DNA from: Amoebidium appalachense
Taxonomy: Eukaryota; Protista; Ichthyosporea
Direction: 5' to 3'
DNA: 64,000 nucleotides
Assembly: GCA_963693365.1 (NCBI GenBank)
Contig: CAVNZM010000011.1
Coordinates: forward strand, 7,551,437-7,615,436
Part shown: positions 39,709 to 64,000 of the stretch, in pieces
Layout: every line of letters starts with the position of its first letter
Position numbering within the stretch: the stretch's first letter is position 1
Program-made: the position numbers and the translations under genes
Notes under the pieces: model-generated
The model's input: only the letters and a program-made list of their open reading frames with translations
Told to the model about the DNA's origin: nothing
Databases searched by the model: none

Positions 39709-39750
39709 ATACCACGGCCATCTAGAAGTGTTTCTAGATGGCCGTGGTAT
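39709..39750. repeat. Perfect 19-bp hairpin with 4-nt loop
   Basis: ATACCACGGCCATCTAGAA-GTGT-TTCTAGATGGCCGTGGTAT. Confidence 0.9.
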
Positions 39751-39776
39751 ATATGCATACGCCGGAAGCACGGCCC

Positions 39777-40169
39777 TTGGGATATTCGGGTTGGTTGTAA
39801 GGTTTTCCGGGTCGGGCCGAAGGCCCTAACGGGCCGCAGGCCCGTCTATTGGGCCATAGGCCCTAGGCCTGGGGCCTGGGGCCCGGGGCGCCGGGGACCG
39901 GGGGGCCCGGCCCGGCCCGCGAGCCACCCCCCCCCCCCCGGCCCGGCCCGGCGGCCCGGGGTTAGCAAACTCTGCTAACCCCGGGCCGCCGGGCCGGGCC
40001 GGGGGGGGGGGTGGCTCGCGGGCCGGGCCGGGCCCCCCCGGTCCCCGGCGCCCCGGGCCCCAGGCCCCAGGCCCCAGGCCTAGGGCCTATGGCCCAATAG
40101 ACGGGCCTGCGGCTCGTTAGGGCCTTCGGCCCGACCCGGAAAACCTTACAACCAACCCGAATATCCCAA
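39777..40169. repeat. ~390-bp GC-rich palindrome (arms ~190 bp, loop AACTC at 39968-39972)
   Basis: The arms are reverse complements except for one substitution, one extra CAGGCCC unit and homopolymer length differences. Confidence 0.95.
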
Positions 40170-40726
40170 TATTGCTTCATTCTGATTGGTTGTCACACCA
40201 CGGGGTTTCCCGATTGTTCTTCGAATGACATTTGCTATCACTATCAGACAGTTCTCCAATATCAGAACAGAAAACGGTCTCTACCCAGATGGCCAGATGG
40301 CCAGGTCAAATTCAGTGTGTGGAAAAAGGTGGATAAAACGGGATAAAACGGTGAGCAAAATGATCTGGCCATCTGGCCATGTGGCCATGGAATCTCTATA
40401 TCTAAAAATAGCTGCCACTGCGCCGGGGCGTGGTTCCGGGAGGCAGGGGAGGCACGTGAGCACTCACTGGCCCTGCGCCGGGGCGTGGTTCCGGGAGGCA
40501 GGGGAGCAGGGGAGGCAGGGCGAGGCACGTGAGCACTCACTGGGGCCTGGTTCCGGGAGGCAGGGGAGCAGGGGAGCACTCAGTGTGTGGGTGTGCATAT
40601 GGCAGGGGAGCAGGGGGGCAGGGGGGCAGGGGGGCTGGGGAGCAGGGGAGACTGGCATGCCACTCACGGGGAGGATAGTGTATGTTGGCACGTGTGGGTG
40701 TGTGGGTGATAAAGGCAGAAGCCACA

Positions 40727-41701
40727 ACACGTGTGGTGTCTAAACAGCCTATAGGCATGCTCCGTGTGCAGGCACCAATTTCTACCCTCTTCTGGTTGGT
40801 GCCAAGAGGCAGCGCCCTACACGTGTGGTGTCTAAACAGCCTATAGGCATGCTCCGTGTGCAGGCACCAATTTCTACCCTCTTCTGGTTGGTGCCAAGAG
40901 GCAGCGCCCTACACGTGTGGTGTCTAAACAGCCTATAGGCATGCTCCGTGTGCAGGCACCAATTTCTACCCTCTTCTGGTTGGTGCCAAGAGGCAGCGCC
41001 CTACACGTGTGGTGTCTAAACAGCCTATAGGCATGCTCCGTGTGCAGGCACCAATTTCTACCCTCTTCTGGTTGGTGCCAAGAGGCAGCGCCCTACACGT
41101 GTGGTGTCTAAACAGCCTATAGGCATGCTCCGTGTGCAGGCACCAATTTCTACCCTCTTCTGGTTGGTGCCAAGAGGCAGCGCCCTACACGTGTGGTGTC
41201 TAAACAGCCTATAGGCATGCTCCGTGTGCAGGCACCAATTTCTACCCTCTTCTGGTTGGTGCCAAGAGGCAGCGCCCTACACGTGTGGTGTCTAAACAGC
41301 CTATAGGCATGCTCCGTGTGCAGGCACCAATTTCTACCCTCTTCTGGTTGGTGCCAAGAGGCAGCGCCCTACACGTGTGGTGTCTAAACAGCCTATAGGC
41401 ATGCTCCGTGTGCAGGCACCAATTTCTACCCTCTTCTGGTTGGTGCCAAGAGGCAGCGCCCTACACGTGTGGTGTCTAAACAGCCTATAGGCATGCTCCG
41501 TGTGCAGGCACCAATTTCTACCCTCTTCTGGTTGGTGCCAAGAGGCAGCGCCCTACACGTGTGGTGTCTAAACAGCCTATAGGCATGCTCCGTGTGCAGG
41601 CACCAATTTCTACCCTCTTCTGGTTGGTGCCAAGAGGCAGCGCCCTACACGTGTGGTGTCTAAACAGCCTATAGGCATGCTCCGTGTGCAGGCACCAATT
41701 T
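40727..41701. repeat. 92-bp perfect tandem repeat, ~10.6 copies
   Basis: TAAACAGCCT at 40741, 40833, 40925 and onward to 41661. The units appear identical. Confidence 0.97.
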
Positions 41702-41887
41702 GTTGTGCCTTCCTTTTTTGGTTAGATCTATACCCGGCCAATGGTTAGCAGCCACGGGTTTGTTTTCATCAAGCTTAGACGTGATACTTTGCCAACCATC
41801 AAGGCCGTTTGAGTGACAATGACCGTTGATTGGAGAGATCTATCCCATTGAGCCTTGGCACCATTGCTGTAAGCTGCTTTGTACCGT

Positions 41888-41900
41888 GGCATATAAAAGC
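41888..41900 (+). promoter_or_regulatory. TATA box GGCATATAAAAGC, with upstream CCAAT/ATTGG
   Basis: 95 bp upstream of ATG 41995. The same 13-mer precedes the convergent gene. Confidence 0.7.
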
Positions 41901-61044: not shown

Positions 61045-61196
61045 GTTGATGTAGGGCGCGATAAGAGTTGACGGCTTCATTCCAAATCCAGGGCGTTGCA
61101 CACCGAGACCAGGTTTGCCCTTGCGCAGTCCAGCACGAAGGCCGCCAGCTCGGAGTAGTCGTGGGGGGGCGGCTGGCTCTGCGCGGCCAGCAGCAG

Positions 61197-61943
61197 CTAG
61201 TGGTAGCGCTCGCGGGAGCTGCGGTCTGTGTACAACGAGAGGGGAACGGCAATATAGGGCGAGAGCAGCACGCTGACCAACAGACGGGCGACGCGCCCGT
61301 TGCCGTTGCTGAACGGGTGGATGTAGAGGAACTCCCCGAGGAAACGGGCGGCCACCTGTATGGCACCGAGAACGTCATTGCAGCCTTGGAGTTCGGTGCG
61401 TGTCCTTTCGAACAGACGCTTGAGAGCCTCTTCGATCTTGAACGGTGCAAGGTACTGATGACTGCAGCCTGCGGGAAGCGCAAAGCGCACCCGATACCGT
61501 CCAGCGCTATCGAGCAGCCCGTCCATGACCTTGCGATGGACCTCCCTAGCGAGCTCCACCGTAAACGTGCCTGGATCAATCCCCTTCCAAACCCACGGTG
61601 TGGGGAACAGCTCGCGAACTGCTATAACGACGTTTTTCAGTTTCTTCGATGAGCGCGTGTGTTCGGACGTTTCATCGGGGCAGGAGATCAGCCTCTCAAT
61701 ATGTTCGACTGGGACCTTTTCGTTTATTTCCAATTCCATCAGGTGCTTGATGTATAACACTAGGTGGTGCGTTGTGTATCCCTGCATGAACAAAGCGCTG
61801 CTCTTATCGTTATCCAAAAACGTGCGCACCAGGTGGAGGCAGCGCACAACAGCCCCTTCGCTGAGTTGAGACATCACGGTGTTGAACCGACAGATAAAGT
61901 ACCACAAACTATCAAAATCGACCTTTACGTCACACGGCAACAA
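61197..61943 (-). CDS. Fic-domain protein, apparently truncated by an in-frame TAG
   Basis: HPFSNGNGRVAR motif. A Fic-like helix continues past the TAG. Start uncertain. Confidence 0.85.
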   Translation of the reverse strand: MLPCDVKVDFDSLWYFICRFNTVMSQLSEGAVVRCLHLVRTFLDNDKSSALFMQGYTTHHLVLYIKHLMELEINEKVPVEHIERLISCPDETSEHTRSSKKLKNVVIAVRELFPTPWVWKGIDPGTFTVELAREVHRKVMDGLLDSAGRYRVRFALPAGCSHQYLAPFKIEEALKRLFERTRTELQGCNDVLGAIQVAARFLGEFLYIHPFSNGNGRVARLLVSVLLSPYIAVPLSLYTDRSSRERYH

Positions 61944-62935
61944 CCCGGCCCATATCCACCTGCGCGTTCACCACCCTGTTCTCCTGCCCCCGCCCCCTAC
62001 CCAGTCCACCGATTTCTCCACAAACCAGAGAGAACACGGCAGTGCCCATGAACGTTTGGCCCGCATTTTGCTAGAGAACAGCATCGCCGGTCCCCCCCAT
62101 GTCTCCCGGAACCCAAGAGAACACCATGGCATCCCCAACCATGTCTCCCGGATCCTTGGAGAACAGGTGCTGGGGGTGGACCCTGTTCGCCGATTGCTTT
62201 TTCCTAGGAGCGGGGCCTGGGGGGCATGAGGGGCACGCGAGGCACGCGATGGCACAGTGGTCTCACGGGTCTGTGTGCCACAGGCGCCCCCCCAGCCCCC
62301 CCCCAGGCCCCCGGAACAGGCAACGCGGAACCACAACTTCGTTCCAAAGCAGCGCCAGATGTGCCAATAAACGGCCAAAGCAGCGCGCAGTTGGCTACCC
62401 CGCTATTCGATCTGATTGGTCGAAAGCGTTCAAGATCCTGACCAAGGTTTCAGAATCTGTTTGTATCGTTGATAGGACTATTTCTTCGCGATTTCTGTTT
62501 GAAATGTGACCGAATTGTTTATAAAACTATCTTGAATATGAAATTAGGTATAAAACGTTTGATTTTATTCTTATGTTTGGTTCTAAGGAATAGAAGAGAA
62601 AAAGGCATCAGCTGTCATTGAAAAATCTTGAAGCACTGGCATTGCCTGCTCTTCGCGGGATCTGATTGGATCTTGAATTGGGTGTGATCCAATCCCCAGC
62701 AGCCAATCGTGCAGTTTGGTGATCTGGATCTGAAAGCATTCTCCCAATCAAACGCGTGACTGGATATCATTTCGTCAGCATCAGTTGGGAATTGGCTTCT
62801 AAGGGCACGGCACAGCTGATAGGGTGTCACTTTCACACACCTTCTGTAGTGTCAACATCAAAGGCTTTGAAGTCGCTTGTTAGGTCGCCTTTTACTGATT
62901 TTCGCTTTGCACCCCCATTTCTACACACACACACC

Positions 62936-63799
62936 ATGGAACAAGTAGGCAAGCGCAGCTACAAATGGCTGACCGATCACCTTTTCACTAAGAACACTTA
63001 GGACAAATACATGGTCAAGTGCCGCGCTTGTGTCGCTGACATGCACAGCGACCAGATCCCCTCGCATGTGAAGGTGTGCAGGGAATTAAACCACTGCCAG
63101 GACGCCATCCTTACCCTCGTCGCCGCAGAGAACGCCGTCGGGCCCGCGCGCGACAAGGTGCGTCCGTTGGTCACGGAGTTCGGGGGGTGCGCAGTGGCTG
63201 CACAGTCCGTCGTGCCGGGTCTGCGCCAGTACCTGCAGCAGCCTGGGCGCAACGTCGTGGGCGCGGCTAAGGCACGGGCGGTGGCGCAGGCGCTCCACGA
63301 CATGGCAGAGGCGGCTCGGGCGGTTAAGGACGGGTATGTGGGTTTTTGGTCGGCTGAGGATGCTGTGGAGCGCAACAAGCAAGCGCTGCGCCATCGGATT
63401 GCCGAACGTGTCCACCGCCGCCAGGGCGGGGAGGGGCCCGGCCAGTTCGCCTACGTTCCCCGCCCCCCCGGTTCTCCCCGTCCAAACCTCCTCCCCTTTG
63501 CGCTCACACCCGGGGAGCTTGCAAGTGGCAACGTGCTCCGGCAGTGCGAGATATTTCTGTTTGATCGAGTGCAGAGGGATCCGAAGTACCCTCCCGGGAA
63601 ACGTATCGACTCGGACGATGTGTGGGGGGCGGAGGAGAGAGACTCTGCTCTTGCGGCATCGATCGATGAGTGGGCGGTGGAGGTTCCCGTTTGGTGGGAT
63701 GAGGGCAACCACTATTTTGTTCAGGACATGGAGATGATTGAGCAGCGCCTGCGGGAGGGGTATGATTGGGTGATGAAGGTTGTTGCGGAGCTTGAGTGA
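62936..63799 (+). CDS. Hypothetical protein, with ATG 62936 in frame but a TAG at 62999-63001 (open from 63011)
   Basis: CACCATGG context at 62936, upstream CCAAT-rich region and a long high-GC3 ORF. Confidence 0.65.
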
Positions 63800-63819
63800 G
63801 GGCTGGGGGGGGGGGGGTT

Positions 63820-63920
63820 GATGGGGTGGTGTTAGCATGAGCTAGATGGGGGTTGGTTTAATGGGATGGTGTTAGCATGAGCTAGATGGGGGTTGGTTTG
63901 ATGGGATGGTGTTAGCATGG
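63820..63920. repeat. ~40-bp tandem repeat, ~2.5 copies
   Basis: GGTGTTAGCATGAGCTAGATGGGGGTTGGTTT repeated. Confidence 0.8.
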
Positions 63921-64000
63921 GAGGGCTTGGAAGTTGTTTGATGTGCTTCCGGGAGAAGTTCATGCACGAAATAAACCAAGCATCTGTGTATCATGCTGCT

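Follow-up and report, generated by a model that had tools for sequence, protein, structure and literature searches.

An intron-free, virus-like block with Pol II-type signals in an Amoebidium appalachense chromosome

Genes and repeats of the block

We analyzed a window of 64,000 nucleotides of A. appalachense DNA, in which an intron-poor island lies in intron-rich host DNA, with contiguous open reading frames (ORFs) to the right of the boundary and spliced host exons to the left (Table 1). Simple repeats make up 118 nt per kb on the host side of the boundary and 4 nt per kb on the element side, and the coding fraction of the element is 0.65-0.73, with long satellites. The first satellite region has an inverted copy at 46,951-47,256 (306 bp, 95%). 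Four genes of the block are broken, and four C2H2 loci were found where the original prediction had counted three.

Table 1. Features at the left boundary and in the block.
Feature	Position	Strand	Basis or remark
Host MITE, outside the element	39488..39661	.	9-bp target duplication CGATGTCTC
36-bp hairpin, dispersed mini-element	39711..39746	.	Fold; TA on either side, variable loop
393-bp GC-rich foldback palindrome, likely host mobile repeat	39777..40169	.	Self reverse complement, 378/403 columns
Inverted AGATGGCC/GGCCATCT repeats around a spacer, origin-like or MITE-like	40286..40390	.	Side of boundary uncertain
First element-type sequence, GAGGCACG repeats	40410..40600	.	Motif counts
92-bp satellite, 10.6 identical copies and 3' unique part	40727..41782	.
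369-aa orphan: coiled coil, PT/AKT repeats, basic-acidic tail	41995..43104	+	TATA 103 nt upstream
22-bp satellite, ~48 copies	43590..44632	.
283-aa orphan, internal repeats and basic patches	44731..45582	-	TATA 92 nt upstream; five-box CCAAT cluster 45,715-45,912
120-aa coiled-coil ORF	46530..46892	+
TGAGTA/TACTCA iteron cluster around AT-rich core	47260..47600	.	Putative origin-like structure
C2H2 zinc-finger frame without ATG	47574..47939	+	PF00096, E=8.5e-14; stops at IS607 insertion
IS607 element, nested	47938..50043	-	CAGTT at either end
TnpB/Fanzor2, D/E/D motifs intact	48,035 to ~49,450	within IS607 element	NF040570, 133 bits (cut-off 100)
TnpA serine recombinase	49,314-49,997	within IS607 element	NF033518, 167 bits (cut-off 110)
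C2H2 ORF, 96 aa	50159..50449	+	Pfam
172-aa orphan	50696..51214	-	TATA 59 nt upstream
Cys-rich CPHG-repeat protein with a presumably endonuclease-like part (EVDEDQH motif)	51765..52941	-	Two frames, broken near 52.33-52.36 kb
143-aa basic orphan	53613..54044	+	Five CCAAT boxes; TATA 71 nt upstream; AATAAA at stop
266-aa orphan	54228..55028	-
107-aa ORF, C-terminal hydrophobic segment	55179..55502	+
Primase-less NrS-1/D5-like SF3 helicase with C-terminal winged helix	55580..57109	+	PF19263; TATA 47 nt upstream of ATG
TCGGG/CCCGA iterons, inverted groups around AT-rich core	57110..57290	.	Directly 3' of helicase stop
Five-finger C2H2 protein	57421..57891	+	Pfam; AATAAA at stop
Four dispersed GC-rich hairpin repeats with GAGGCACG, intergenic	57950..62315	.	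At 57,954; 58,885; 60,030; 62,210
Degenerate nuclease-winged-helix gene	58135..58865	+	Intact 107-aa end 55% identical to C-terminus of helicase P0052
Restriction-type nuclease (which we take to be PD-(D/E)xK) fused to winged helix	59040..59732	+	Winged helix 51% identical to that of local helicase
C2H2 ORF, 86 aa	59769..60029	+	Pfam
Patatin phospholipase	60169..61044	-	Catalytic motifs intact; AATAAA at stop
Fic-domain protein	61197..61874	-	HPFxxGNGRxxR motif intact
Orphan, in-frame stop near start	62936..63799	+	Four-box CCAAT cluster upstream, no TATA

For one gene of the block, that for the patatin, the closest relative with genomic context is a giant-virus gene. It lies on the GVMAG contig L161, next to genes for PCNA, TFIIS, a capping enzyme and Rpb6, and the two proteins share 43% identity; the remaining three of four matches have no context. 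As the L161 giant virus encodes an RNA polymerase (RNAP) subunit and a capping enzyme, the patatin gives no link to RNAP-less families. The CPHG-repeat part of the broken gene at 52 kb, whose product had no Pfam match, matches proteins adjoining primase-helicases on two further contigs (L073 and L075). The 266-aa orphan had no Pfam, PHROG or Atlas match and an unusable single-sequence structure model (pLDDT 35.6), and the last orphan of the window gave no matches among 1.84 billion representatives.

The original prediction had reported no capsid, PolB, RNAP or integrase gene. Pfam searches of 23 ORFs of the window indeed returned no match to MCP, A32, VLTF3, PolB or RNAP, but a serine recombinase is present, as the TnpA of a nested IS607-Fanzor2 transposon. 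This transposon appears intact from its sequence, with the RuvC motifs ALDPG, VNESYTS and DRDVNGARNI in TnpB/Fanzor2, and has no close relative in viral_contigs.

The left boundary and the host flank

An edge at 39,709, as first proposed, proved wrong: this position starts a small dispersed hairpin within a cluster of host mobile repeats, and the element starts at ~40.2-40.45 kb (boundary within 40,170-40,450). The 36-bp hairpin sits between the host MITE and the 393-bp foldback repeat. Summed contig depth over the MITE reached hundreds to ~1000 times that of the flank (X1, X5), with loose ends at both of its edges and an empty-site contig in X1. Loose ends of the hairpin fell near 39,710-39,712 and 39,746, with indels at 39,726-39,727, and its ends were loose on one or both sides among the matches listed of X1, X2 and X17. 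At the left end of the foldback, both X1 and X5 gave a high summed depth, and X1 and X17 showed it next to other neighbours. The GAGGCACG motif has no copies in 1-39,708 and nine in 39,709-64,000.

A contig of X5 spans 39,717-39,803 at flank-like depth, a span that lies left of the boundary. Element interior was found in DNA runs from three studies, one possibly the window's own source; the runs containing it also contain host flank, and the best of them hold a 0.58-0.67 share of its words. A host LINE has a CGC/GCG observed-to-expected ratio of 0.11, compared with 0.69-0.81 in other CG contexts, the pattern expected from Amoebidium-type hypermethylation of CGC/GCG, as reported for that genome (PMC11244446). 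A substitution test on a host duplicate gave 10/288 versus 6/288, a weak difference. Amoebidium GEVEs (endogenous giant-virus insertions) are marked by dense methylation outside CGC/GCG. Within the block, the CG ratio is 0.52 in the left arm (41.8-47.3 kb) versus 0.85 in 50.1-64 kb, which is merely suggestive of methylation. Together with the four broken genes, this left-arm depletion points to an inserted copy that is likely now methylated and decaying.

Transcription signals and the helicase

All five TATA sites named in the original prediction (41888, 45678, 51275, 53540 and 55531) are GG(CA)TATAAAA on the coding strand. Using an untuned 150-nt window and a set of 18 genes of our own choosing, which excludes the ATG-less C2H2 frame (47,574) as well as the Fanzor ORF, whose start is uncertain, we observed TATAAAA upstream of five genes (at 47, 59, 71, 92 and 103 nt) versus 1/18 when the opposite strand was read (binomial P=2.3e-4); the other 13 have none. 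In 39,709-64,000 the motif occurs 11 times, whereas 200 Markov simulations averaged 1.0 copies and never exceeded 4. AATAAA is fused to the stop codon in exactly the three genes predicted (54042, 57888 and 60172; P=9e-5) and is absent from the stops of the other 15. Three clusters contain four to five CCAATC/GATTGG per 250 bp (45.7-45.9, 53.36-53.50 and 62.66-62.75 kb), where the simulations reached at most 3 and the host part at most 2. The proposal that such clusters precede the TATA genes holds for two of the five; the gene at 51,214 has none, and the third cluster precedes a TATA-less gene. These data support the conclusion that genes of the block carry TATA, CCAAT and AATAAA signals at positions typical of Pol II genes. 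We propose that TBP and NF-Y, the CCAAT factor, both supplied by the host, switch on the basic orphan genes at the terminus as an immediate-early set.

The helicase model (pLDDT 89) has as its best PDB match the C-terminal region of NrS-1 (6k9c; NrS-1 residues 305-718). D5-like primase-helicases combine an AEP with an SF3 domain, whereas this protein consists of SF3 and winged helix only, and PHROG primase profiles match from position ~480 onward; a canonical D5 of its own may be encoded beyond the window. The helicase, which lacks the D5-defining primase and whose family occurs in phages, virophages and giant viruses, is not diagnostic of a nucleocytovirus. In a tree without named references the helicase belongs to a distinct, long-stemmed clade of eight rows (SH-like 100), to which the scans run added no catalogued member. 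The original suggestion of a poorly described lineage thus stands for the helicase, which comes from a branch missing in the virus catalogues scanned; it probably fails for the class of element, as giant-virus insertions in Amoebidium are already published (PMC11244446). For P0006, which is basal in the clade, the N-terminal domain is predicted as an HUH Rep (Atlas 0.95, CRESS Rep families), and Pfam found no HUH domain in the window's helicase or the ORFs scanned.

Three iteron-and-AT-core structures lie in the window. The putatively origin-like iterons behind the helicase gene include five of the seven TCGGGAG copies in 39,709-64,000 around a core of 68% AT, and the cluster at 47 kb holds 14 of 16 TGAGTA/TACTCA copies around a core of 76% AT. 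The helicase's winged helix, which recurs in two neighbouring genes, would bind iterons and open the AT-rich core.

Identity of the element and comparison with known systems

The block, from ~40.3 kb to past the window's end, probably represents one end, the left and satellite-rich one, of an endogenous nucleocytovirus (GEVE) in the chromosome of a microbial eukaryote, with genes that would be read in the nucleus by host Pol II. The original reading is supported as far as an endogenous virus-like block with Pol II-type signals goes, by the motif statistics, the giant-virus relative of the patatin and the IS607-Fanzor2 passenger. Nucleocytovirus membership is unproven, as the window holds neither a capsid gene nor a core marker, and placement in Mamonoviridae or 'Manesviridae' would need an MCP, A32, VLTF3 or PolB phylogeny; because the element runs off the right edge with 24 kb visible, the absence of a capsid gene says little. 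An integration event would have fixed the copy, by an enzyme encoded outside the window, and host or distal viral enzymes would carry out DNA synthesis.

An unlikely alternative is a giant mobile replicon without a capsid, which would replicate in the nucleus by means of its helicase and iterons and gather giant-virus accessory genes, and whose autonomous form may nick and integrate through an HUH Rep. The distinct helicase clade, the HUH prediction in P0006, the iteron structures with their reused winged helix and 24 kb of sequence with no virion gene all argue for it, but the local proteins scanned contain no HUH domain, P0006 has no context (a 3.6-kb contig with no viral_contigs locus), only part of the element is inside the window, and published GEVEs likewise miss parts of the core set. 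We give equally little credence to a mid-sized nuclear DNA virus of 35-60 kb, mriyavirus-like or Polinton-like, with its capsid module to the right of the window. Mriyaviruses have no PolB or RNAP and possess a PDDEXK nuclease, an SF3 helicase with primase lost or dead and an HUH endonuclease (PMC11253617), SF3 helicases often replace pPolB in PLVs (10.64898/2026.06.19.733378), and adintoviruses of ~30 kb are present in Amoebidium. Against this, coding is sparse with long satellites, no HUH gene was found in the window, and 24 kb without a morphogenesis, VLTF or integrase gene leaves little space in a 30-45 kb genome; adintoviruses and Polintons have capsid genes, a retroviral-type integrase and a protein-primed PolB within ~30 kb, none of which occurs in these first 24 kb. 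More speculative, and itself rather improbable, is that the block belongs to nuclear large-DNA elements of a lineage so far undescribed, be they viruses or capsid-less, with host Pol II promoters only, iteron origins and a primase-less NrS-1-type helicase, in which a CRESS-type HUH Rep, kept in P0006, would have replaced the primase and the winged helix would be a mobile origin-binding module. If true, it would provide a rolling-circle link joining giant viruses, mriyaviruses and giant transposons.

We consider a mirusvirus-like endogenous element very improbable: some mirusvirus lineages are described as having no PolB or RNAP and as predicted nuclear (PMC12768974), but those lineages are intron-rich and the genes here intron-free, HK97 MCP, portal, terminase and triplex had no Pfam or PHROG match in the window, and a search of two mirusvirus papers found no mention of Amoebidium. 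A Plavaka-associated giant repeat, as described in Amoebidium, shares the host, intron-poor genes and tandem repeats; it is disfavoured, and we attach hardly any weight to it, as neither a tyrosine recombinase nor a Plavaka transposase was found among the ORFs scanned in the window and tandem clusters of repeated genes are absent. Scarcely credible, too, is an assembly chimera in which DNA of a co-cultured virus was joined to the host's at a repeat. The boundary adjoins a high-copy palindrome, where mis-joins classically arise, the read tests stop short of 39,851-40,720, and the best runs recover the interior incompletely; on the other side stand that X5 bridge, the recovery of interior in three studies (one possibly the window's source), and the CG depletion and broken genes, which suggest residence under host methylation.

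The favoured GEVE-end reading has its nearest precedent in the same species. The 90 GEVEs described there are intron-poor, have Mamonoviridae as relatives and in no case possess all core genes (PMC11244446). The block resembles them as an island dense in genes and poor in introns within a genome rich in introns and transposons, with an incomplete core set and secondary transposon insertions. It differs in that the window has none of the markers named there (MCP, VLTF3, A32, PCNA, JmjC and DNMT); the main text mentions neither helicase nor Fanzor, and the Results examined describe no viral promoter motifs. RNAP-less nucleocytoviruses exist (PMC8557863, PMC11253617, 10.64898/2026.08.29.747986), and, if the GEVE-end reading is right, as is likely, the element would depend on host Pol II as medusa-, ariadna- and mriyaviruses do. 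Medusavirus (Mamonoviridae) and the 'Ariadnavirales' resemble it in having no RNAP and relying on host nuclear transcription, and the immediate-early genes of the RNAP-less medusavirus are mostly orphans, often nucleus-targeted (PMC8557863). Medusavirus promoters carry a palindrome as early motif as well as a poly-A motif, CCAAT being unmentioned, in contrast to TATA plus CCAAT here, and ariadnaviruses wholly lack the D5-like helicase, whereas an SF3 helicase is present here.

The punuivirus GEVE of Chlamydomonas also has satellite arrays in its terminal repeats and Fanzor passengers (10.1101/2024.09.03.611062), and we count its host-like transcription module (PMC13692296) as a likeness. Unlike the window, it encodes RNAP and PolB and has host-like genes with introns and 6mA, and its passengers are Fanzor1 with IS630 transposases rather than IS607-Fanzor2. 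Canonical Fanzor2 resides in IS607 elements, with a chlorovirus example known (10.1101/2023.08.09.552727), and our element matches these in its TnpA serine recombinase and a TnpB with DPG and shifted-glutamate motifs, with no terminal inverted repeats seen; its two ends share CAGTT, which reads AACTG on the element's strand, unlike the GGG of ISXfa1. Within the window the block resembles Mriyaviricetes, by description rather than by helicase-to-helicase comparison, in showing no PolB or RNAP, an SF3 helicase without a working primase, a restriction-type nuclease and, in the helicase relative P0006, a predicted HUH domain; it differs in lacking MCP, VLTF2/3, RuvC and the HUH endonuclease found in every mriyavirus genome, and in its looser gene packing. 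The helicase and its winged helix share the fold of NrS-1 and SaPI primase-helicases (6k9c, 7ola), but without their primase-polymerase domain and in a eukaryotic setting with TATA and CCAAT promoters. The iterons around an AT-rich core after the helicase gene presumably resemble SaPI and P4 origins.

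Left boundary of the element and the host DNA beside it

The original prediction had set the junction of the virus-like, intron-free element at 39,709. When we compared 39,100-39,850 with contigs of four sequencing runs, this position instead proved to be a cluster of host repeats (see table). One contig from run X5 spans 39,717-39,803 with zero mismatches and a flank-like depth, boundary depths being sums over contigs and not copy numbers. The gaps in contig cover within 39,100-39,850 (none in run X17 at 39,672-39,697, low in run X1 at 39,750-39,775) are no proof of anything. 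The element-specific octamer GAGGCACG has zero copies left of 39,709 and nine to the right, and because the first of these is at 40,449, we place the predicted start of the element somewhere from 40,170 to about 40,410.

We also considered the 393-bp palindrome as a viral hairpin telomere and set this aside, since a high summed depth and other neighbours were seen at its left end (its interior depth is not comparable). At 39382-39670, both X1 and X5 show two versions of the locus, the MITE-free one in X1, and the MITE insertion just upstream of a host gene is polymorphic or paralogous. The octamer GGCCATCT is common to the 36-bp hairpin (39711-39746) and an iteron-like array (40286-40390), in opposite arrangement. 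A single CCAAT box at 40181-40192, with the palindrome on one side and the iteron array on the other, resembles the promoter boxes of the element and may be a property of the minus-strand host gene.

Features of the window, by position
Feature	Position	Description
LINE	3500-13500	Endonuclease, reverse transcriptase and RNase H-like parts (labels from motifs)
Duplication, 4-kb	15472-19507 and 31174-35232	86% identity; includes last exons of galactosyltransferase-like host gene
Tandem array	22100-23800	Unit roughly 180 bp; host part
MITE	39,488-39,661	Very abundant; 9-bp duplication and empty-site contig in X1
Dispersed hairpin, 36-bp	39,711-39,746	Loose ends; loop varies among copies
Palindrome, 393-bp	starts 39,777	Self-complementary in 378/403 columns; other neighbours in X1 and X17
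Satellite-rich arm	40.4-47.3 kb	92-bp array, 22-bp array, 306-bp inverted repeat
IS607 element	~47,938-50,043	Serine recombinase and TnpB/Fanzor2; CAGTT at both ends
SF3 helicase	55,580-57,109 (+)	Winged helix at C-terminus; no primase

The left 39 kb contains a LINE, satellites, a 4-kb duplication and spliced exons; the exons have splice sites, and their galactosyltransferase match is weak (E=0.08). The LINE, whose interior also contains a long array of repeats as well as an inverted duplication, carries the strongest CGC/GCG depletion in the window (0.11 of expectation vs 0.69-0.81 in other CG contexts). CGC/GCG hypermethylation as described for the ichthyosporean Amoebidium (PMC11244446) would leave such a footprint, and the signature makes an Amoebidium-type host the likely one; a Chara-like host, which the simple repeats had suggested, was discarded in the light of this depletion. 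A second source describes the non-CGC context as used for Amoebidium species only (PMC12344493).

Transcription signals, gene content and the nested transposon

All five TATA sites and all three AATAAA signals fused to stop codons in the original prediction were present at the coordinates given there. Within an 18-gene set of our own choosing, from which we excluded the Fanzor ORF and a C2H2 frame that lacks an ATG, TATAAAA lies 47-103 nt upstream on the coding strand of five genes and on the opposite strand of one (P=2.3e-4), and AATAAA overlaps the stop codon of three (P=9e-5). The clustering of CCAAT boxes was likewise borne out, with three clusters that each lie beyond all 200 simulations and beyond anything in the host part, but the TATA genes that they were said to precede own only two of the three. 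A limited literature search, which does not prove absence, found no giant-virus title on promoters combining CCAAT, a TATA box and host RNA polymerase II.

The satellite-rich arm, in which CG observed/expected is 0.52 vs 0.85 further in, carries basic, repeat-laden orphans behind the strongest promoters. The interior encodes C2H2 proteins (we counted four loci where three genes had been reported), Fic, patatin and a Cys-repeat/endonuclease gene split into two frames. The orphan at 54,228-55,028 had no match in the protein-family database Atlas and gave an unusable structure model, and that at 63,011-63,799 had none among 1.84 billion representatives. Short segments are duplicated within the element (54088-54154 and 55441-55510; 51532-51653 and 53086-53199), with a poly-G run or an AT-rich stretch close to the end of every segment. 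No RNA runs were among the matches listed for runs that contain the element interior.

A search with the patatin returned four matches among 7,994 scored candidates, one of them on the giant-virus metagenome contig L161, where genes for a capping enzyme and for RNAP small subunits flank it and PCNA and TFIIS lie nearby. This match supports a nucleocytovirus gene pool, but its neighbours suggest a virus that encodes transcription genes itself. L161 also encodes an aquaporin (MIP; 18165-18983), a family named among Amoebidium GEVE (endogenous giant virus) genes.

No integrase had been seen in the 24 kb; a serine recombinase exists, but it is supplied by the nested IS607 element, whose insertion truncates a C2H2 frame. 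Both IS607 proteins score above NCBIfam cut-offs with intact catalytic motifs, and the IS607-Fanzor2 is seemingly intact. An Rfam scan of 38-64 kb gave no matches with E values up to 0.1 and hence no guide RNA annotation, and Fanzor2 and TnpA as single-protein queries found no locus in the viral_contigs collection.

The helicase clade and its iterons

The structure model of the helicase (pLDDT 89) best matches the NrS-1 C-terminal region, followed by SaPI and poxvirus D5, and its viral matches mix phages, one virophage and giant viruses at identities of 22% or less. Seven of 44 database matches are close relatives (33-58% identity across 82-98% of length). In a FastTree phylogeny without a named giant-virus reference (84 of 90 rows left after duplicate removal, the best 45 of 160 locus frames, and P0052 in place of P0007, both related helicases), the window helicase and these seven form one long-stemmed clade (SH-like 100). 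Alignment scans returned distant helicases only, none above 36% over its best segment (among the best 80 loci of each collection, out of 439 metagenome, 349 viral and 101 prokaryote loci confirmed), and the helicase and its basal relative P0006 as single-protein queries found no locus in viral_contigs.

Atlas places the N-terminal domain of P0006 (residues 25-150) with CRESS and plasmid HUH Reps at very high confidence, a feature-based prediction from part of a protein on a 3.6-kb contig. P0006 has a predicted HUH Rep fused to an NrS-1-type helicase at the position normally held by primase in this family. Two neighbouring genes each join a nuclease to this winged helix, with 51% identity to the local helicase in one and 55% identity to P0052 in the other, and such fusions occur among environmental proteins in both orders; a nuclease scan gave three unclassified loci. 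Immediately 3' of the helicase stop, inverted TCGGG iterons surround an AT-rich core, with similar arrays at 47.3-47.6 and 40.3-40.4 kb. We take these arrays, by analogy, to resemble SaPI and P4 origins and regard them as candidate binding sites.

Nature of the element and comparison with known systems

We favor, with somewhat better than even confidence, the reading that the element behaves as one terminus of an endogenous giant virus that depends on the nucleus. Starting from the observed signal placement, gene content, repeats and nested transposon, we propose that host Pol II, together with TBP and NF-Y, would transcribe its genes, that the helicase would load at the iterons, that integration would proceed through an enzyme encoded outside the window, and that silencing and decay would follow under host methylation. 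No family is assigned because the window holds no defining marker and the helicase falls outside the D5 criterion.

Two other readings, a helicase replicon without a capsid and a mid-sized virus of mriya- or Polinton-like type, strike us as about equally unlikely; the helicase, its iterons and the HUH-bearing relative are common ground with the former, and mriyaviruses are described as lacking both polymerases (PMC11253617). A mirusvirus is quite improbable. We give least credence, in equal measure, to a Plavaka repeat, although such repeats, like adintoviruses, are described in the Amoebidium genome, and to a chimera. For that genome, 90 GEVEs are described on the chromosomes; they are related to Mamonoviridae, and each lacks part of the core set (PMC11244446). 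The suggestion of a poorly described lineage holds for the helicase, which in the scans run has its own clade, but probably not for the element, whose class is probably already known; the locus itself may be among the GEVEs already delimited.

If the element is a GEVE end, it offers concrete promoter and terminator sites for studying host Pol II use by a nucleus-dependent giant virus, makes that use testable in a close relative of animals, and yields an IS607-Fanzor2 that seems intact and whose target motif can be predicted. Should the rest of the insertion lack capsid genes, the helicase-iteron module and the HUH-bearing relative would represent a self-copying element of a new type.

The iterons, the promoter set, the intact IS607-Fanzor2 and the helicase clade, together with the predicted HUH protein related to it, do not appear in the texts compared, which included 10.64898/2026.06.19.733378, PMC10827195, 10.1101/2025.04.19.649669, 10.1101/2023.08.09.552727, PMC13289167 and PMC12768974; supplements of the bioRxiv papers may list the helicase or the locus. 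Among known systems, ariadnaviruses are described as lacking both polymerases (10.64898/2026.08.29.747986). Medusavirus is described as having orphan nuclear immediate-early genes and no RNAP, but with promoter motifs unlike those of the element (PMC8557863). Punuivirus is described as combining terminal repeats that bear satellites with Fanzors and a host-like module (10.1101/2024.09.03.611062; PMC13692296).
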